This document shows positions 21,181 through 58,480 of a stretch of 64,000 bases of DNA, in pieces. The DNA is from Bacillota bacterium (GTDB lineage: Bacteria > Bacillota > SHA-98 > UBA4971): positions 329,549-393,548 of the forward strand of contig JBMNFG010000011.1 in assembly GCA_050949175.1 (NCBI GenBank), in the 5' to 3' direction. Position numbers and translations under genes: made by a program. The first letter of the stretch is position 1. Every line of letters begins with the position of its first letter. The notes under the pieces were generated by a model. It had not been told where the DNA came from. It did no database searches and saw only the letters and a program-made list of their open reading frames with translations.

Positions 21181-21540
21181 TGGTGGAGGCGGCGGGAATC
21201 GAACCCGCGTCCGAAAAGCCAACTCGAAGAGCTTCTACGAGCGTAGCGTAGGGTTTAAGTTTCGCCAAGGAAGCTCTCCTACGCGAGTTCCTCCAGGGCT
21301 ATCCCGTTAAAGTCTTAGCTCAAATCCTCCGAGAACAGAATTTGAACGCATCCTGGTTTATTTGACGCCCGCACCGGCCTCCCAGGAAAAGTCCGGATTG
21401 GACGGCTGCTTTATTTCTTAAGCAGCGTAAGCGTAATTGTTGTTGGCACTTATTGTGCGTTCCACCGTTTTACGAGGTTGGCGGAATCTCGGCTCGCTAC
21501 TCTTGTCGTTGCAACTCCCCGTCGAAACCATAACGCCCCC
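21181..21540 (-). ncRNA. ssrA: tmRNA; tag peptide ANNNYAYAA* at 21447-21418
   Basis: 5' GGGGGCG...TTCGACGGGG; 3' T-arm GGTTCGATTCCCG and CGCCTCCACCA; lies directly downstream of smpB. Confidence 0.97.
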
Positions 21541-21642: not shown

Positions 21643-22101
21643 TCAGTATGATCCCCTGTCCTTAATAGCTCGATCTACTTGTCTCCTGATATCCCGCTTC
21701 TTAATGTCTTCTCTCTTATCGTAAAGCCGCTTGCCTCGTGCAAGAGCAAGCTCCACCTTAGCCCAACCATTCTTCAAGTAGACTTTCAGCGGAACTAGTG
21801 TAAACCCTTTCTCTTGCGTTTTTGTGGCAAGTTTTCGTATCTCAGACTTATTAAGAAGTAGCTTCCTTGTGCGCCTGGGTTCATGGTTGAACCTGTTGCC
21901 GGCATCATAAGGGCTTACATTCATATTATATAGGAAAACTTCGCCGTTCTCCACTCTGGCGAAACTGTCGCGAAGACTCACCATTCCTTGCCTGACAGAC
22001 TTAATCTCTGTACCGGTAAGGACGATTCCTGCTTCATATGTCTCGCCTATATGATAGTCGTGATAGGCTTTTCTATTTGTTGCAACAACTTTATTTGCCA
22101 A
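21643..22101 (-). CDS. smpB: SsrA-binding protein
   Basis: [35 protein letters not shown]. Confidence 0.98.
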
Positions 22102-22175: not shown

Positions 22176-22733
22176 TCACAAACCCAGCTCAGAGGATATG
22201 GACTGCATTGCCTCAAGACCGATCTTTATGAATTCTTCGAGACTAAGTCCTAGTTCACAGCAAGACTTCATCTGTTCCCTGTTCGCCCCTCGGGCAAATG
22301 AAGGCTCCTTGAATCTGTTCAGCACAAAGCCTACATCTATAGCATTCAGCTTTTTCTCAGGGTGGATCAATGCAGCAGCCACCAAAAGCCCGGTTAAAGG
22401 ATCAACCGCCCACAGGGCTTTGTCCAGAAGCGACTCTCGCGGAAGCCCGTGGCATTCATTGTGAGCCTTAACTGCATAGACTATATCCTCATCGACCCCC
22501 AGCTCTTCGAGGAGTTTGCCTCCGACCAAGCTGTGGCGCTCAGGTTCATCTGAAGTCTCGTCATAGTCGACGTCATGCAGCAGTCCGGCAAGTGCCCATT
22601 TCTCTTCATTTTCACCAAGATGTCTTGCTAAAGCCGCCATAACAACTTCTGCCGCAAGCATGTGCTTTACCAAATTCCTCGTCTTCACGTGCTTCTTCAC
22701 AAGCCTCAACGCATCTTCTCTCTTCATCATCAC
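22176..22733 (-). CDS. HD/HDIG-domain metal-dependent phosphohydrolase
   Basis: KHMLA, GLLHDVDY, KAHN, VDPLTG. Confidence 0.88.
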   Translation of the reverse strand: MMMKREDALRLVKKHVKTRNLVKHMLAAEVVMAALARHLGENEEKWALAGLLHDVDYDETSDEPERHSLVGGKLLEELGVDEDIVYAVKAHNECHGLPRESLLDKALWAVDPLTGLLVAAALIHPEKKLNAIDVGFVLNRFKEPSFARGANREQMKSCCELGLSLEEFIKIGLEAMQSISSELGL

Positions 22734-22820
22734 TGCCTCCTCATTTGCTGCTCAATACTGCCCACCTAACACTAAGGCCAGTTTCATCACAGTGGATCTC
22801 ACTATAGGCGCTTCACGCGC

Positions 22821-23047
22821 AATTCCGTGGCCAGCTGATTATGACAGATTCATTATGCTCGATTTGGTGGCCGATCCACTACAGCCGTTTCTATTTCCGA
22901 TTCTATGACCGATCCACTACAGCCAATTCTGTGTCCTATTCATTACGGCGGGTTCATTATGCTCGATTCCGTGGCTGACCCGTTAGGACTGATTCTGTAA
23001 CAGATTCCTTAAAACGGGTTCATTATGGCCGACTTTATGACAGTTTC
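22821..23047. repeat. Degenerate minisatellite of interleaved 12- and 14-bp units (GATTCCGTGGCC / GATTCATTATGGCC)
   Basis: About 17 units read directly, e.g. gatccactacagcc twice and ttcattatgctcgatt twice. Confidence 0.7.
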
Positions 23048-23107: not shown

Positions 23108-23687
23108 GTGGTTCGATTTCCGGCACCGCCCTAGGAAGCGATAGTCTGTATGGTCGAATTCCTACCACCGTAAGGCTTTTCTGTGGAAGGTTTTCTACCA
23201 CAGTTTTGGGCGTACGCTCTAAAATGGTAGATTCTCGCCCACAAGGAGGCCTAAAGGTGGAAGGTTTTCTACCACGATCAGGCGTCCAGGTGGTAGAATA
23301 TCGACCACCGCGCCTCCCACAAGGTGGAAAATCGCGGTTTGGTAGTCGAAACTCGCCCACATTTTCTGAAAAAGTGGGCGAAAAACTGCCACGTTTTTAA
23401 AAAAAGTGGTAGAGAATCTACCACCTGAGCCCCAAAAAGCTCCAAAAACCGGGTTGCAACCTGAAAATGTGGTCGATTCTCTACCACCTGAGGCGCTTTG
23501 GGTGGTTCAGAATCGCCCATTTATGAACATTTGCTCGGAAAAATCCGAAAGGGTGGTCGAGATTGAACCACTTCTCTAAGGAAAGGTGGTTGAAAACCGA
23601 CCACTTATGAGCGTTTGCTCAAAAAAACCATTAAGGGTGGCCTCGGTCAACCATCTAATTGGTAAAATGTGGCCGGAAACCGACCAC
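23108..23687. repeat. Phased palindrome array, copy 1: 15 units of about 19 bp GTGGTcGA-N3-TCgACCAC
   Basis: Units start at 23108, 23150, 23183, 23224, 23257, 23290, 23342, 23374, 23406, 23469, 23502, 23553, 23586, 23637 and 23669. Confidence 0.9.
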
Positions 23688-23693
23688 ACTGAT

Positions 23694-23880
23694 AATAGTC
23701 AGAACAACCCTATAATCGGATTCAATAGTTCGAACAACGTATGAGTTGATTTACCAGTTCGAACAACCTCACAAGTTCACTTAATAGCTATAACAACCCT
23801 ACGAGTTCATTCAACAGTCCCGACAGCCCTATAGGTTCATTTGACAGTTTGACAGTTAGAACAACCCTATAAGCTCATTC
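23694..23880. repeat. 30-bp tandem repeat (5 copies plus the gene copy) matching the 3' end of hppA
   Basis: Units such as aatagctataacaaccctacgagttcattc match the gene end gacagttagaacaaccctataagctcattc. Confidence 0.85.
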
Positions 23881-25893
23881 AAATGTACAATCAACGGAGC
23901 GAAAACAAGGGCTACAACAGTCATCAACTTAATCAGGATGTTCATAGCCGGTGCGGCAGCATCCTTAAAGGGGTCTCCTACCGTATCACCGATCACTGCA
24001 GCCGCGTGTACAGGAGTTCCCTTGCCTCCAAGGTTTCCGGCTTCCACGTGTTTCTTGGCATTATCCCAGGCGCCGCCTGCATTGGCAAGCTGGATAGCCA
24101 AGGGCACACCGCTTGTCAATGACCCTGCCAGGACACCTCCCAGAGTTTCAGGGCCCAGAAATACCCCTACAGCAAGCGGAAGGAACACTGCCACAAGTCC
24201 GGGGGCCACCATTTCTCGAAGAGCAGCAGCAGTAGTTATGTCTACACACTTGGCATAATCCGCTCTCCCGGTACCGTCCATAAGACCGGGAATCTCGGCA
24301 AACTGCCTTCTGACTTCTTCAACTACCTTAAACGCAGCACGCCCCACAGCGCTCATGACTTCGGAAGCGAATATGTAAGGTACCATTGCACCTATCAGAA
24401 CCCCTGCCACAACTTTAGCGCTTAGCAGGTTTATAGCTTGAAGCTGCACTGCATGCACATATGCAAAGAACAGAGCAAGTGCTGTCAGGGCAGCGGACCC
24501 GATTGCAAAACCCTTGGCAATAGCTGCAGTAGTATTTCCCGCAGCATCCAGAGAGTCAGTCACTTCCCGAACTTGCGACGGCATATGACCCATCTCAGCA
24601 ATTCCGCCTGCATTATCTGATATAGGTCCGTACGCATCCACAGCTACAGTCATGCCTGTGGTAGAAAGCATTCCCACAGCTGCAATGGCTATGCCGTAGA
24701 AACCTGCTGTGTAATAGGAGATCAATGTTGAAAGAGCGATAAAGATAAGAGGAACTACCGTGCTCCGCATACTCAAAGCAAACCCGCTGATAATATTCGT
24801 AGCAGGCCCGGTAAGGCAAGTCTCAGCTAAATCCTCCACTGCCTTTCCGGATGTATACTTTTCAGCAATCCCTCCGATAACCATCCCTGCCAGGAGGCCG
24901 AAGAAGGCTGCCCAAAATACGCTGAGTTCACCGTAGTAATACTTGCTCAGGAAGAAAGCGCCGACAACAACTAATCCTGCGCTGACAAGCGTGCCATTGC
25001 GCAAAGCGCCTCCCGGATCTCCTTCGGTTTTTCCGGTTCTTACAAAGAATGTTCCGATGATCGATGAGATAATGCCGATCCCTGCCAAACAGAGGGCAAA
25101 TATGATCTTCTTGAAGCCGTCAGGAGCGTTGAGGCTGGTTGCCGTAGCAATAACAAGCGCAGATACAATCGCCCCAATATAAGACTCGTAAAGGTCGGCT
25201 CCCATTCCTGCTACGTCCCCTACATTATCACCTACAAGGTCAGCGATGACCGCAGGGTTTCTAGGGTCATCTTCAGGAATGCCTTTCTCTACTTTACCGA
25301 CGAGGTCTGCACCGACATCTGCCGCTTTTGTGTATATGCCCCCTGCAACCCTTGCGAACAACGCCACAAGGCTCGCGCCCATACTGAACCCTGATATCAA
25401 ATCTGTCGCAGAGAACACATCTCCGCCAGGCAAGACCGACAATATGTAGTACACAATAGACAAAGAAAACAGCCCTATGCTGGCTACATACATTCCCATA
25501 ACCGCGCCGCCGGGAAAGGCCACTCTAAGGGCTTCATTGAAACCGTCTGCTGCAGCGTGGGCAGTCCTGCTGTTAGCAGCTGTAGCTATCTTCATCCCCA
25601 CATATCCTGCAGAAACAGACGTTAATCCTCCTATTAAGAAAGCAATCGCGGTATGTACATTAATCGCAAACACTATAAGCAAGAAGATAACACCGATGAA
25701 AACCAGAACGACTCTGTACTCCCGCCTCAAGAAGGCCATTGCACCTTCATGTATGGCTCCTGATAATTCTTGTATTCTTGCACTGCCAGGATCTTTCTTT
25801 AGACACATACTGCACAAGATAGGCGACAAAAAGGAGCCCTAAACCGCCTGCTAAGGCCGCGTACAAAATAGAAGACGCACCGATGGATGTCAT
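23856..25893 (-). CDS. hppA: Membrane-bound K+-dependent (probably Na+-pumping) pyrophosphatase, with one extra base near codon 31
   Basis: [42 protein letters not shown]; an upstream ATG at 25893 with RBS encodes TM1 in a different frame. Confidence 0.88.
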
Positions 25894-49285: not shown

Positions 49286-50569
49286 CTAGCCGCTGTTGTG
49301 CGCAAAGTATCGGGAATACTCGCGAGAATACTCGTGCGGGACAGCCTCCTGCGCCTGAAAGATCCACCTCGGCCTAGTTACCGCCCACGGACTTGCCCTG
49401 TATGCCTTAAGGACTTCGTCGTAAACCCGAGACGTGGATTCAGCTATTATGTCCCAGTTAAACTTAGTTAGAACATCATGTGTTGCATTGGCACGGATTT
49501 CGTCGCACAAGCGCTTGTCTGCAAGGAGGGTTAGGATATTATCCGCAAGTGAACTGGGGTTACCGGGGTAGCATTTCATGCCTGTAACCCCGTGTCTGAC
49601 TACTTCTCCTAACCCTCCTACATCTGAAACCACAACCGGAGTCCCTGATGCCATGGCCTCCAGCGCAGTTATGCCAAAGGGTTCATAGAGGCTGGGCACA
49701 CAGGCCACGTCTGCACACTTATAGAGCTTATTGCGAGTTGGATCATCGACAAACCCTGCGAAGTAAACCCTGTTGTAGATGCCCAGATTGCCGGCATATT
49801 CTTTTAGATATGCATCAGCAGGGCCTTTGCCCGCGACAACCAGTTTAACCTTGTCCCTGTAAGCAAGGACTTTGCAGAACGCATCGAGAAGGACATGGAC
49901 CCCTTTCTCATGCACCAGCCTGCCTATGAAGAAGATCATCTGCTCATCAGGTGCAGCCCATCTTGAACGAAAAGCAACAAGGTCCTCGCCTTCAGGCACT
50001 TGAAACCTGGTTGGGTCTACCCCGTTGGGGATTTGGCGCAGTTTATCTCCGGGAAGCTGAAAGATCCATGATAACTCGCGGCGCATGTGCTCACTGCAGC
50101 ATATGACACGCCACGATTCGAACCCCAGCCACCACTCGACATTACTGATGTAGCGCTGCAGATCATTGTGAAGGCCCCAATTCCGGCCGTATTCCGTGGC
50201 ATGAATTGTACCGACTAAAGGAATGTTAAAAGCATGTTTCAATGCTTTCCCGGCGTAGGCAACTATCCAATCATGTGCGTGCACAAGATCCGCACCCATA
50301 GCAGCCCGTTCAATCCCGCGCTCCATAAGGTTCAGGTTCATCTGCATGACCCAGGTGAGAAAGTCAGGAGGAGAAGGATTGTGAAAAGGAACTCTGAACA
50401 CCCGGACCCCTTCGTCATCCTCTTCTTCGCAGGCATTACTGTGGCCGCAGGTGATAACATCAACATCCACTCCCTGCTTAACCAGGGCTTTCGAAAGGTC
50501 CTCCACATGCCTGGCTATTCCCCCGACCACCCTCGGCGGATACTCCCAGGAAAGCATAATCACGTGCAC
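49286..50569 (-). CDS. GT4-family glycosyltransferase
   Basis: SWEYPPRVVGG, HAHDW, GRLVHEKG, YEPFGITALEAMA. Confidence 0.92.
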   Translation of the reverse strand: MHVIMLSWEYPPRVVGGIARHVEDLSKALVKQGVDVDVITCGHSNACEEEDDEGVRVFRVPFHNPSPPDFLTWVMQMNLNLMERGIERAAMGADLVHAHDWIVAYAGKALKHAFNIPLVGTIHATEYGRNWGLHNDLQRYISNVEWWLGFESWRVICCSEHMRRELSWIFQLPGDKLRQIPNGVDPTRFQVPEGEDLVAFRSRWAAPDEQMIFFIGRLVHEKGVHVLLDAFCKVLAYRDKVKLVVAGKGPADAYLKEYAGNLGIYNRVYFAGFVDDPTRNKLYKCADVACVPSLYEPFGITALEAMASGTPVVVSDVGGLGEVVRHGVTGMKCYPGNPSSLADNILTLLADKRLCDEIRANATHDVLTKFNWDIIAESTSRVYDEVLKAYRASPWAVTRPRWIFQAQEAVPHEYSREYSRYFAHNSG

Positions 50570-50584
50570 TGTATCTCCTCCTTT

Positions 50585-51395
50585 AATGAGCCGCTACGCC
50601 GCTAATAGCCCGCTAATACGCTGCTAATAGCCAGCTGGTTAACTGCGAATAGAGTGCCAAAGATTGCTGTAGACTGCTAGCTGCTAACAGACCGGTAATA
50701 GACGGCTAACAAACCGCTGTTAAACTGCTAACCGACTGCTGACAGATGGCTAACGGACTGCAAAAAGACTGCTAATCGCCCAGTAATGGCCTACCAATAG
50801 GCCTCTTGTGGCCTCTAGCAGGCCGGTAACGGACTGCTGACAGACCGCTAACGGACTGCTGACAGACTGCTAACGGACTGCTGATACCCTACTAATAGGC
50901 GCCTAATGAACCGCCGGCAGACCGGTGACAAGCCGCTGTTAGACTGCTAACGGCAACCTGAGAGACTGCTATCGGACTGCTAATAGCCTACTCATAGGCC
51001 ACTAATGTCCTCCAGCAGGCCGGTAACCGACTGCTGACGAACTGCTAACGACCTGATGATAGACTGCTCATAGCCTACTGATAGTCTCCTAATGAGCCTC
51101 TAGTAGACGGTCAACAGACTGGTGACACATTGCTAACGACCTGCTAATAGATTGCTAACAGGCTCCTAATCAGCGGCTAGCGAACCGGTAATGGACTGCT
51201 GACAGATTGCTAATGGCCTGCTAATGGCCTGCTGCCAGACTGTTAACGACCTGCTAATAGACTACTCATAGCATACCAATAGGCTCCTAATCAGTCGGCA
51301 GTAGGCCGGCAATGAACTGCTGATAGACTCCTTATACACTCAAGGTAAACCGGTAGGGAACCGGTCATAGGCCTCCAATCGACTGCTCATAGACT
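50585..51395. repeat. About 800 bp 11-bp-period minisatellite (GACTGCTAAYR) with higher-order blocks
   Basis: Example run gactgctgaca-gaccgctaacg-gactgctgaca-gactgctaacg; no ORF of 60 aa or more in the track. Confidence 0.88.
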
Positions 51396-51701
51396 ACAAG
51401 ATGTTTTCTGGCCTCAACGGATACCGACACCCGACATCTTTGCAAACTAAGGAAATCTCATAATACCGACTACTACGGCAGATACAAATCGATGCCTTGA
51501 CCTCGGTATGCATTGCCACCTATCCTACGGTCCTTACCACCTCCGGCACCTTCGACAGCGCAGACCATACCTGTTAACTCCCAGCAAGGATAGATGCATC
51601 TCCTGCTTTGTCCAGGTGTACAGATACCCTAGGTGGCTCTGGAAGAGCACGCCTGTTCTTAGGATTTACTCCAAGTCAGGAATTATTCGTAAGTCAGCCC
51701 T

Positions 51702-52240
51702 GTGGTCGAGAATCGCCCACCATTTGGCTGTTTGATGGCAGTTTTTCTACCACAGTTTTGAGCGTAAGCTCTAAAATGGTAGAGTCTCGCCCACCAAGAG
51801 GCTCAAGGGTGGAAGGTTTTCTACCATGATCAGGCGTTAAGGTGGTAGGATATCGACCACCACGCCTCCCAAAATCTTACACATCACGGTTTGGTGGTCG
51901 AAACTCGCCCACATTTTCTGAAAAAGTGGGCGAAAAACTGCCACATTTTCCAAAAACGTGGTAGGAATTCTACCACCTGAGCCTCAAAAAGCTCCCAAAA
52001 CCGGGCTCCAACCTGAAAATGTGGTCGATTCTCTACCGCCTGAGGCAGTTTGGGTGGTTCAAAATCGTCCATTTATGAACGTTTGCTCGAAAAAATCCAA
52101 AAGGGTGGTCGAAATTGAACCACCTTTTTAAGGAAATGTGGCTCAAAATCGCCCATTTATGAGCGTTTGCTCAAAAAAACCGCAAAGAGTAGCCGAAATT
52201 GGTCCACGTTGTCTGCAAACGGTGGTTCAATTTCGATAAC
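51702..52240. repeat. Phased palindrome array, copy 2: 14 units, same orientation as copy 1
   Basis: Units start at 51702, 51735, 51776, 51809, 51842, 51894, 51926, 51958, 52021, 52054, 52105, 52138, 52189 and 52222; spacers align with copy 1. Confidence 0.9.
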
Positions 52241-52284
52241 CGTTCTTAGCTAGATTTGTTTTTGAACGGTTGAGTCAGAGTCCG

Positions 52285-52620
52285 GGTAAAAAAAGCAGCA
52301 AAATCAACAGGAAAGACAGCACAAAATGGAATATCAGAATGCCACAGAACAGACCTCAAAAGAGGCAACAGAAGAAGCAAAAGAAAGAAGCAGGACAGGC
52401 GCCGGAAGATAGAATATGAGAACGCCACCGAAGAGCCAGCAGACGAGATCTTAGAAGAAGCAACAGGAGAAAGAGCAGAAGATAGGAGCAGGAAAGGCTC
52501 TGGAAGATAGAGTACAAGAACGCACAGAACAGGCACCGAAAGAAGGAGCGAAAGAAAGAACAGAAGACAGAGCAGCAGAAAGAACTGAAGGAAGAGCAGG
52601 CGAAAGAAGGGAAACCGTCA
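52285..52620. repeat. Purine-rich (A/G) low-complexity tract with roughly 12-bp periodicity
   Basis: aagaacagaagacagagcagcagaaagaactgaagg-like runs; very few T on the + strand. Confidence 0.6.
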
Positions 52621-52720
52621 GCTAGTCGTAAAGATGGCCGACTAGTCGTAAAGATGGCCAACTAGACGTAAAGATAGCCAACCGGCCGTAAAGATAGCCA
52701 ACTAGGTGTATAGATGGCAG
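52621..52720. repeat. 20-bp tandem repeat (4 copies plus the gene copy) matching the 3' end of oppD
   Basis: actagtcgtaaagatggcca-type units followed in register by actaggtgtatagatggcag, which contains the stop codon. Confidence 0.85.
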
Positions 52721-53778
52721 CGGACTTTGCGTCCGTCATCCATTGTGACAAAAGGCGGCTCAATATTGAAGCACACAGAGTGAGCATCCTTGCAGCGCGG
52801 TGTAAAGCTGCACCCAGGAGGAAGATTGGTAAGGTCGGGAACCTCGCCTTCTACAGGAACAAGTTCGCGCCTCTGGCCTATCTGGGGAATCGATCTTAGA
52901 AGGCCTTGAGTATAAGGATGAAGCGGCGAAGTAAGCACATCGTCGATATCTCCCGACTCTACGATTTGGCCTGCGTACATCACGGCAGCTTTGTGACAGA
53001 ATTCCGCTGCAACGCCCAGGTCATGGGTGACAAGGATTATCGCTGTCCCAAGCTCTTCATTAATCTCACGCATCAAATCCAGCACCTGCGCCTGAACTGT
53101 GACGTCCAAAGCAGTGGTGGGTTCGTCGGCCAGTATAACCTTAGGCCTGCACGCAAGGGCAATAGCAATGAGGATGCGCTGCTGCATCCCACCGCTGAAC
53201 TGATGGGGATACTCCAGATGCCTGTGCTCCGGAGAAGGTATCCCCACCTGCCTTAGAAGGTTCACCACCAGTTCCCGCTCTTTCTCGCGCTCATCACGCC
53301 GAAGGCGCCTGAGAAACCCCGGCAGCAGCCCGTGAACACGAAGAGACTCCGAAATCTGCTCCCCCACTCGGTAAGCAGGGTTCAGGGTCGTCATAGGATC
53401 CTGGAAAACCATTGCGATATCTTTTCCTCGCACGTCCCGCATTTCTGCTTCAGACAGAGTCAGAAGTTCCCTTCCTTCAAACTTAACAGACCCGTTGACA
53501 ATCCGCCCCGGACGAGGGACAAGCCGCATTATCGAAAGCAGGCATGCGCTCTTACCGCAGCCTGATTCTCCCACAATCGCCAGGATGTCGCCTTTCGCTA
53601 ACACAAGGTCGACATTACGCACAGCGCGGACAGTCCCTCGAGGAGTTGGATACTCGGTAGACAGCCCGGAGACCTCAAGGACCCAAGGAGTTTCAGGAGA
53701 CTGTTCATTGTGAGTTGATTTCCCAGATTCAGCTCCGATCAAAGCTCGATGTTTAGTTCGTTTGTTTAGGGTGTCCAT
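52702..53778 (-). CDS. oppD: Oligopeptide/dipeptide ABC ATP-binding protein (OppD/DppD)
   Basis: [31 protein letters not shown]-terminal Cys motif. Confidence 0.92.
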   Translation of the reverse strand: MDTLNKRTKHRALIGAESGKSTHNEQSPETPWVLEVSGLSTEYPTPRGTVRAVRNVDLVLAKGDILAIVGESGCGKSACLLSIMRLVPRPGRIVNGSVKFEGRELLTLSEAEMRDVRGKDIAMVFQDPMTTLNPAYRVGEQISESLRVHGLLPGFLRRLRRDEREKERELVVNLLRQVGIPSPEHRHLEYPHQFSGGMQQRILIAIALACRPKVILADEPTTALDVTVQAQVLDLMREINEELGTAIILVTHDLGVAAEFCHKAAVMYAGQIVESGDIDDVLTSPLHPYTQGLLRSIPQIGQRRELVPVEGEVPDLTNLPPGCSFTPRCKDAHSVCFNIEPPFVTMDDGRKVRCHLYT

Positions 53779-53784
53779 CTGATA

Positions 53785-54003
53785 ACCTCCCTGTTAACCC
53801 TCCTGTTAACGGTCCTGTTGTCCCTCCCGTTAACCGTCCTGTTAACGCTCCTATTAACTCTCCCGCTGACTGTCCGGTTAACCGTCCTGTTAACTGTCAC
53901 TGTCCGTTAACCGCCCTGTTGACCCTCCTGTCAACCGTCCTGTTAATCCTTCTGTTAACCCGCGTGTTGATCCTCCTGTTAACCCTCGCGCTAACCCTCC
54001 TGC
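53785..54003. repeat. 12-bp tandem repeat (about 18 copies), minus strand CAGGAGGGTTAA, matching the oppC end
   Basis: cctgttaaccct units run from the oppC stop (CAG GAG GGT TAG) to the oppD RBS. Confidence 0.88.
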
Positions 54004-58236: not shown

Positions 58237-58246
58237 AGTTGGCGCC

Positions 58247-58383
58247 CCCCTCTCAACGCTTACGAGGTTAGCTGACGGACTCGGGCCGAAGGAGCTAGCC
58301 CTACCTGCCTTACCGGCAGGATTCGCCCCCTTACTGGGACTTCGGTTCCCCCGCTCTTCCTTACGGAAGATTCAGCGGCTGCG
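58247..58383 (-). ncRNA. c-di-AMP (ydaO/yuaA) riboswitch
   Basis: Minus strand GCTGAATC...GGGGGAACC...GGGGCGAATCC...GTAGGG...CCCGAGTCCGTCAGCTAACCTCGTAAGCG, the conserved ydaO segments, with GTAA-capped stems. Confidence 0.93.
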
Positions 58384-58480
58384 TTTGTCCCTTAAGTGTC
58401 CCTTAAGGTGAATCGCAGCATCAACAGCGCATATGACCTGTTATTCATGCACGTCACGCTATACTACTGTTGCATTATTT

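Follow-up and report, generated by a model that had tools for sequence, protein, structure and literature searches.

What keeps half-kilobase arrays of short palindromes alike, down to the spacing of their units, at separate intergenic places of one bacterial genome? We took up this question for a 64,000-nt stretch of assembly GCA_050949175.1 (hereafter the window), which spans positions 329,549 to 393,548 of contig JBMNFG010000011.1 (C11:329549-393548 in our contig naming). The source genome, G000, is from an uncultured member of the Bacillota and comprises 2.01 Mb in 14 contigs, with about 49.5% G+C and 92% completeness. The element under study is a palindrome array that occurs twice in the window, between hppA and an HD-domain gene (copy 1) and between a GT4 glycosyltransferase gene and oppD (copy 2). 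Our best explanation, to which we give an even chance, is that each array is a phased operator array on which a putative dimeric DNA-binding protein builds a one-faced nucleoprotein complex.

Anatomy of the palindrome arrays

Copy 2, the main feature, occupies positions 51702 to 52240 on the plus strand and consists of 14 GTGG-N11-CCAC-type units of 19 nt, the first of them at 51702-51720, with a 3' part made of 84-nt two-unit modules. Copy 1, at about 23151 to 23690 and also on the plus strand, has the same orientation and unit spacing and is ~85% identical. A repeat search of the window returned the two as a 300-nt pair with 85% identity, 28,552 nt apart in the same orientation, with the 84-nt 3' modules common to both. 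Their alignment was gap-free over about 500 columns, the first gap being a single nucleotide near the 3' end, which places the second copy where the initial annotation had it, 28.5 kb from the first.

Unit spacings were measured with the pattern NTGG-N11-CCAN, merged values indicating one unit with a mutated core. Copy 2 gave 33, 41, 33, 33, 52, 32, 32, 96 (= 63 + 33), 51 and 33 nt, and copy 1 gave 33, 41, 33, 33, 84 (= 52 + 32), 32, 63, 33, 51, 33 and 83 nt. With the merged values resolved in this way, the search reproduces the preserved spacing pattern of the initial annotation, including the 1-nt difference at the end. A spacer said to be replaced at unchanged length within the 52-nt interval is likewise present, as a 17-nt stretch at alignment columns about 222-238; several variants of this spacer exist, each common to a subset of the copies in G000.

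The array core has 12 units, each exactly 19 nt long and of the GTGG-N11-CCAC type, and two further degenerate units lie in the 3' modules, giving 12-14 units per copy. The core motif is TGGNNG-N5-CNNCCA, with TGGTCG-N5-CGACCA given as its ancestral form. The whole element is visibly composed of ~84-nt two-unit modules with spacings of 33 + 51 nt, and units 1-2 are homologous to units 3-4. The number of 84-nt 3' modules differs among copies, six copies have extra 5' modules and the 5' end fades to a degenerate unit. In copy 2, this 'unit 0' region lies in a weakly conserved 5' leader (51650 to 51701, plus strand), and the element has no sharp 5' boundary.

A protein-coding repeat was ruled out by the 4-9 stops that interrupt each of the six frames and by the lack of a period-3 signal in the array (power 0.98 times the mean). 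Separately, the 13-nt spacer between units 6 and 7 (window about 51915-51935, the same place in all copies) is a palindrome of a T-run and an A-run. It is conserved in G000 and slightly shifted in congeners, and together with its flanking arms it forms an alternative inverted repeat with 12 of 13 bp matched; it may be a site for a second factor.

Genome-wide copies and constraint on length

BLASTN of G000 recovered 21 full-length copies, which have 82-91% identity to copy 2 and with few exceptions align without gaps, and a 22nd copy cut by a contig end, with an upstream flank equal to that of the copy at 10.9 kb on contig C8. All copies are intergenic, and their neighbours are housekeeping genes. 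Of the 161 genomic occurrences of the strict unit GTGGT[CA]GA-N6-8-CCAC, 160 lie within element copies, and 328 of the 356 occurrences of GTGG-N11-CCAC likewise fall within arrays. The clustering of strict units is far from chance and, with the 21 full-length copies, bears out the earlier view that the element behaves as a whole unit.

Length proved to be constrained more than sequence. Over a 466-column core, the 210 pairs drawn from the 21 copies differed by 11,739 substitutions and 0 gap events, at a mean pairwise identity of 87.8% (range 79.5%-99.6%). The same 491 model positions correspond to 486-495 nt in copies from other species, whose identity is about 65% (65-70%). The initial annotation had proposed that selection acts on spacer length rather than spacer sequence. 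The part concerning length stands; the part concerning sequence does so only in a relative sense, as spacers are not free: within a genome they are conserved to the same degree as the units, and some of them contain small hairpins.

To establish that copy 2 is authentic, we turned to public sequencing runs. A 1401-nt stretch holding copy 2 and both of its junctions had 0.89-0.91 of its sampled words (word shares only) in 14 DNA runs from 10 studies of digesters, sludge, landfill and other sources. Copy 2 is therefore not an assembly artefact.

Only one other cluster of units was found in G000 beyond the arrays. This mini-array (C11:90760-90870; L087 2250-2370) has two good and two decayed units spaced about 31-33 nt apart, lies outside the 0.5-kb family and is either a decayed copy or a seed. 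We considered whether it marks an autoregulated gene for the binding protein and rejected this, as it is a degenerate mini-array downstream of a 327-amino-acid open reading frame (ORF), not a promoter.

Helical phasing of the units

The spacing classes of 32/33, 41, 51/52 and 63-65 nt correspond to 3, 4, 5 and 6 helical turns. In a phase analysis of seven arrays from five genomes, the best period was 10.5-10.65 bp with a resultant of 0.88-0.96. In 2000 trials with spacings drawn at random from 30-65 nt, 0-2 attained such a value. Arrays of a sister genus keep to the same rule, with spacings that cycle 32, 32, 41 (= 105, ten turns) or 32, 32, 52. Spacings in whole helical turns therefore put all sites on one face of the helix, in agreement with the geometry-dependent function suggested at the outset.

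Phasing also bears on whether the arrays might be a functionless satellite, the product of tandem duplication, spread by recombination and not yet decayed. G000 is unusually rich in degenerate, locus-specific intergenic tandem repeats (197 merged TRF loci, 24.5 kb), and 9 of 21 arrays have a tandem repeat within 500 nt, compared with 33 of the 321 other spacers that are at least 300 nt long. Against this stand the 0 indels over 11,739 pairwise substitutions and the half-sites and phasing kept across genera whose spacers are otherwise unalignable. A general helical phasing of tandem repeats in G000 was also rejected, the periods of the other repeats giving a resultant of just 0.13 at 10.5. A satellite origin is disfavoured and, in our judgement, very improbable.

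Independence of the two half-sites

In a pairing count of the twelve unit stems across 45 copies from several genomes, 69.8% of cells were paired compared to 69.1% in shuffles. The three core pairs TGG/CCA were invariant in this set, and inner positions were often unpaired. A different half-site, TGCTCG/CGAGCA, is found in the congener G006, which has arrays at seven or more places. Among 47 units in four of these arrays, 15 had the arms TGC..GCA, 8 TGC..CCA, 6 TGG..GCA and 2 TGG..CCA, with A or T at one of the two positions in the other 16; in G000, by comparison, 244 of 250 units had TGG..CCA. Fisher's test on the four G/C arm classes of G006 gave an odds ratio of 0.63 (p = 1), and the two arms therefore change independently. 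Each arm, then, is a half-site recognised by its sequence and not a pairing partner of the other. Co-evolution with a trans-acting protein would predict just such a genome-wide change of half-site as G006 shows.

A putative nucleoprotein complex

From the anatomy, length constraint, phasing and arm independence of the arrays, and from the shared sites and grouping by genome described below, we infer a protein, its cooperativity and a cellular role. The element would be a non-coding feature of double-stranded DNA, with 12-14 operator-like inverted repeats on one helix face. A dimeric, sequence-specific protein, probably encoded elsewhere and conserved in this bacterial class, would bind each unit, and through contacts between neighbouring dimers a single ordered nucleoprotein complex would form over some 0.5 kb of DNA. 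Placed at about twenty fixed intergenic sites, these complexes could serve as architectural landmarks, as a titration sink or as roadblocks to transcription or replication. Gene conversion would keep the copies alike within a genome, with occasional seeding into new spacers.

Several points weigh against phased operators as the explanation. The binding protein, its central actor, is hypothetical. New sites arise (as at hppA, below) and copy number varies greatly between genera, neither of which a purely host-serving landmark needs. Orientation relative to GC skew is biased, 15 of 19 copies having their top strand opposite the leading strand, a weak signal that phased operators do not account for. 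The unit-stem covariation score was 0.082 compared to 0.076 in shuffles, a level that 5 of 500 shuffles attained. Folding of single strands is much more stable than that of shuffles (minimum-free-energy z -8.96 and -7.59), and the array stretch is partly present in six RNA libraries (metatranscriptome runs). Finally, some small spacer hairpins change on both sides between species: those in the 51-nt spacers of G000 read GAGC-GTAA-GCTC and GAGC-GTTT-GCTC, while those of the congeners G004 and G007 are different yet self-complementary, which suggests a single-stranded form.

Folding, two-sided hairpin change and presence in RNA libraries would also fit a structured RNA, either a ~500-nt non-coding RNA family or arrays of hairpins resembling 3' untranslated regions or terminators and acting on neighbouring transcripts. 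Linkers that are A-rich on one strand point the same way, as do RNA contigs from four runs, each of a different study, that cover the array, two of them bridging it into oppD. Contig depth was 68-700 on the array core compared to 2-70 on the flanks (about 5-80 times), which is compatible with 21 collapsed copies and, without strand or ends, gives no verdict on a specific transcript; segments that some runs left uncovered were given no weight. Both strands fold about equally, however, as DNA-level inverted repeats would, and helical phasing has no meaning for RNA. Unit stems lack real covariation and the arms of G006 vary independently. The RNAalifold consensus reached a weak -28 kcal/mol over 508 columns, and the structures obtained from the 45 copies, globally and with a 34-nt span limit, were weak and inconsistent because GTGG and CCAC can pair in many ways. 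Nor is orientation tied to flanking genes, as 11 copies between co-directional genes divide into 5 in the same and 6 in the opposite direction. Rfam covariance models gave no match to the array at gathering scores across the window or at E up to 1 over 51500-52400, and a known Rfam family was dismissed, the only matches in the window being a transfer-messenger RNA (tmRNA) and a c-di-AMP riboswitch elsewhere. We regard a structured RNA as disfavoured and quite unlikely.

Site history and exchange between copies

Comparison of orthologous loci revealed both gained and long-held sites. In five congeners, the HD-domain gene follows hppA after 115-246 nt that hold a conserved terminator hairpin and no array. 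The same spacer in G000 is 1122 nt long and consists of the array and locus-specific repeats, with the terminator gone; the site is filled only in G000. Conversely, two arrays of G007 correspond to intact spacers of 98 and 75 nt in G000. Sister-genus arrays lie between ogt and ctsR and between a polysaccharide deacetylase gene and recD2, spacers that have no array in G000, and these neighbours (Ogt/CtsR and deacetylase/RecD2) include no gene in common. When 21 array loci of congeners were placed in G000, 10 adjoined 6 of its arrays, 2 were ambiguous and 9 fell in array-free regions; of the 6 shared G000 sites, 4 match on both flanks.

The copies nonetheless group by genome and not by site. All G000 copies form one clade, apart from all copies of G004 and G007, and same-locus copies of G004 and G007 are not sisters. 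A four-gamete test on the G000 copies found 1269 of 2556 informative-site pairs incompatible, falling to 37.5% for sites less than 20 nt apart (permutation 32/500). This result supports mosaic exchange between copies, with recurrent mutation between two tolerated states as another possible source. Shared sites, grouping by genome and fewer short-range incompatibilities together point to old residency, homogenisation between copies and occasional new seeding, and indicate concerted evolution of the arrays within a genome. The initial annotation had the element spreading as a unit. This holds only in part: the hppA site found only in G000 and the two found only in a congener agree with spread, but at least six sites are common to species and the copies group by genome, so homogenisation between resident copies matters to the same extent.

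Gain of sites also speaks for a selfish, non-autonomous mobile element resembling BIME, BOX or miniature inverted-repeat transposable elements (MITEs), whose palindromes would be the sites of a mobilising recombinase or transposase and conserved for recognition by that enzyme. The array between hppA and the HD-domain gene faces array-free spacers with a terminator in five congeners, the two G007 arrays face intact G000 spacers, and the genus has more than 20 copies per genome compared with few places in the sister genus, whose array positions are empty in G000. Module number is variable at both ends, and one copy lies on a contig filed as viral.

The usual marks of transposition were missing, in line with the earlier statement that terminal inverted repeats, target duplication and a transposase are absent next to the copies. 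The longest word common to both flanks was 4-8 nt, compared to shuffled means of 5.2-6.0, in 20 of 20 copies, and no target duplication appeared at the filled and empty hppA sites or at the two sites specific to G007. Terminal inverted repeats were not found either, the ends being fuzzy with variable modules, and BLAST of G000 yielded no full-length parent; the flanking ORFs are housekeeping genes. A MITE or other non-autonomous insertion sequence derivative was rejected on these grounds. The Y1/RAYT transposase (PF01797) had 0 matches in G000 at its 92% completeness, while control genomes did match. At least six sites are common to species, and fourteen strictly phased sites kept across a class exceed what any known transposon end needs. 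We consider a mobile element unlikely. It agrees with much of the data, and it would be compatible with an operator array if the binding protein were the mobilising enzyme.

Taxonomic range

BLAST detected the element in 6 of 7 congeners and in none of 33 genomes from beyond the genus. A sequence-independent two-unit pattern reached further, to sister-genus arrays of 21, 16, 17 and 10 units (loci L110, L104, L103 and L102) and to one short array (L100) from another family of this class. These arrays have only TGGTCG-N5-CGACCA and the spacings in common with those of G000. Unit centres follow genome G+C and are G+C-rich in the sister-genus and second-family arrays; long ORFs across the G+C-rich sister-genus arrays were discarded as proteins, their translations being junk. 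Copies number more than 20 per genome in this genus, while matches in the sister genus were at only a few places per genome.

Across the phylum, a strict two-unit pattern matched 5 of 400 genomes other than G000, all five in this class, and a reversed-pattern control gave 1 match. The tally of 401 genomes includes G000, whose own units do not fit the strict pattern; exact patterns need two good adjacent units, and a genome in which none was found may still have arrays. In a scan of a collection of genome contigs, matches were to records titled as uncultured Bacillota or Firmicutes metagenome-assembled genomes and to one 1.1-kb contig filed under Chloroflexota. BLASTN of the array against plasmid and phage collections gave no match.

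A pattern scan of viral contigs returned 17 stretches, 16 of which were single matches without an array. The other, on a 5.4-kb contig filed as viral (L122, 5026-5406), is a terminal array of the G000 type with 9 units at the same spacings. The last 220 nt before this array match the flank of the G000 copy at 638 kb on contig C9 at 78%, and the other 4.8 kb have no match in G000.

Comparison with known systems

No description of the array was found among the titles and abstracts searched. One resemblance is to the REP/BIME sequences of enterobacteria, which are also dispersed, intergenic and made of short palindromic units in both orientations, with fixed inter-unit lengths, variable unit number and species-specific sequences. 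REPs also occur singly or in pairs, fold into stable hairpins rich in G+C and are associated with RAYT (Y1) transposases. In G000, by contrast, the units are confined to arrays (160 of 161), each stem has 4-6 bp and encloses a centre of 11 nt, and spacing is in whole turns. A RAYT-associated REP/BIME family was rejected, there being no Y1 transposase (PF01797) and no units scattered singly or as inverted pairs (REPINs). Pneumococcal BOX elements are likewise intergenic and modular elements of Firmicutes with variable module number, many copies and no known transposase. They have the structure boxA-boxB(n)-boxC, stay below 0.3 kb and probably act as RNA; helically phased operator-type sites are not reported for them. 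A CRISPR array was also excluded, as the units differ from each other, some are inverted, periods run from 32 to 63 nt and the would-be 'spacers' are conserved among the 21 copies.

Among sites for dedicated proteins, parS/ParB, matS/MatP and the RefZ-binding motifs of Bacillus resemble the arrays in numbering tens of sites at conserved intergenic or genic positions, the protein being putative in our case. These are single palindromes of 13-20 bp, without concerted evolution of long flanks, whereas here each site is a 0.5-kb array of 14 units. Iteron and incA-type arrays and DnaA-titrating loci (datA) are direct repeats at or near an origin, in one or few copies. They share with the arrays repeated protein sites in helical phase on one DNA face, suited to cooperative binding or titration, which for the arrays is conjectural, but our inverted repeats are dispersed over the chromosome, the nearest about 30 kb from dnaA. 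The origin of G000 lies on contig C7, with dnaA (53 kb), two ParB-type genes (61.8 and 63.5 kb) and three canonical parS sites together, and an ordinary partition system, distinct from the arrays, is therefore present. A third, weak ParB_N-like ORF was noted at 429.7 kb on C11.

In architecture, the arrays come close to sopC of plasmid F, which is described (PMC3177203) as 12 direct 43-bp repeats, each with a 16-bp inverted repeat bound by SopB. Both amount to about 0.5 kb of tandem modules with palindromic sites for a dimeric protein and a large complex, sopC having one site per module and binding here being presumed. The geometry of the 84-nt two-unit modules, in phase, would suit a centromere-type site for a putative binding protein. 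Unlike sopC, a single locus of near-identical modules beside sopAB, the arrays occupy 21 loci beside housekeeping genes, with diverged modules and several spacings. A plasmid-type centromere as a single locus beside parA/parB genes was rejected, given 21 loci beside unrelated genes and ParB-type genes at 61.8 and 63.5 kb on C7.

A broader and more tentative proposal, which we hold to be possible though doubtful, is that one Bacillota class has a chromosome-organising system not recognised before, with the arrays as its cis sites. In it, a DNA-binding protein specific to the class would assemble on some 20 'super-operators' of 0.5 kb, helically phased and placed at conserved intergenic positions. 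Such a system would be to the chromosome what centromere arrays are to plasmids. Gene conversion would maintain the uniformity of the sites, which would co-evolve with the protein, as in the change from TGG to TGC in one species. Interspersed bacterial repeats are commonly taken for RNA hairpins or remains of transposons. The arrays studied here bear another signature, that of a DNA-protein machine: no indels over thousands of substitutions, helical spacings conserved across genera with little else in common, and a genome-wide drift of the half-site in one species. If the operator reading is right, sequence predicts three things for an uncultured lineage that is common in anaerobic digesters, namely a putative DNA-binding protein, the operator it binds and a set of about 20 chromosomal landmarks at fixed places. 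The arrays would also be a clear natural example of dispersed non-coding DNA that evolves in concert.

Genomic surroundings

Pfam confirmed the gene names given in the initial annotation (hppA, smpB, GT4 and oppD). Copy 1 is flanked by hppA, encoding a H+-pyrophosphatase (23856 to 25829, minus strand), and by the HD-domain gene (22176 to 22733, minus strand), beyond which lie smpB (21643-22101) and an ordinary tmRNA gene (21181-21540, minus strand; Rfam) with the tag peptide ANNNYAYAA. Copy 2 lies between the GT4 glycosyltransferase gene (49286 to 50569, minus strand) and the oppD-type ABC ATPase gene (52702 to 53778, minus strand). The c-di-AMP riboswitch (58243-58387, minus strand; 89.5 bits) is likewise ordinary.

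Locus-specific tandem repeats surround both arrays. The spacer between the GT4 gene and copy 2 is filled by repeats with periods of 11, 22, 33 and 88 (50595 to 51390), outside the conserved element and including ~800 nt of 11-nt period upstream of the array, and purine-rich and 20-nt repeats lie between copy 2 and oppD (52246 to 52718). Between copy 1 and hppA are degenerate repeats of ~30 nt (23697 to 23896), absent from the five congeners, and an 84-nt repeat in two copies lies on the 5' side of copy 1 (22820 to 23007).

Some of these repeats echo the ends of genes. The final ~30 nt of the hppA coding region are repeated 5-6 times (23697-23896), the last 20 nt of oppD, stop codon included, four times (52622-52718) and the last 12 nt of oppC about 18 times, filling the spacer between oppC and oppD (53779-54002). 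A general rule that tandem repeats start at gene 3' ends was dropped, as the excess in G000 was weak (20 of 95 loci touching a 3' end compared to 14.1 +/- 3.1 expected). Elsewhere in the genome, away from the arrays, two identical-scoring IstB-like (DnaA-domain) ORFs of 256 amino acids (C7:161469-161759 and C9:390931-391221) suggest copies of an IS21-family element.
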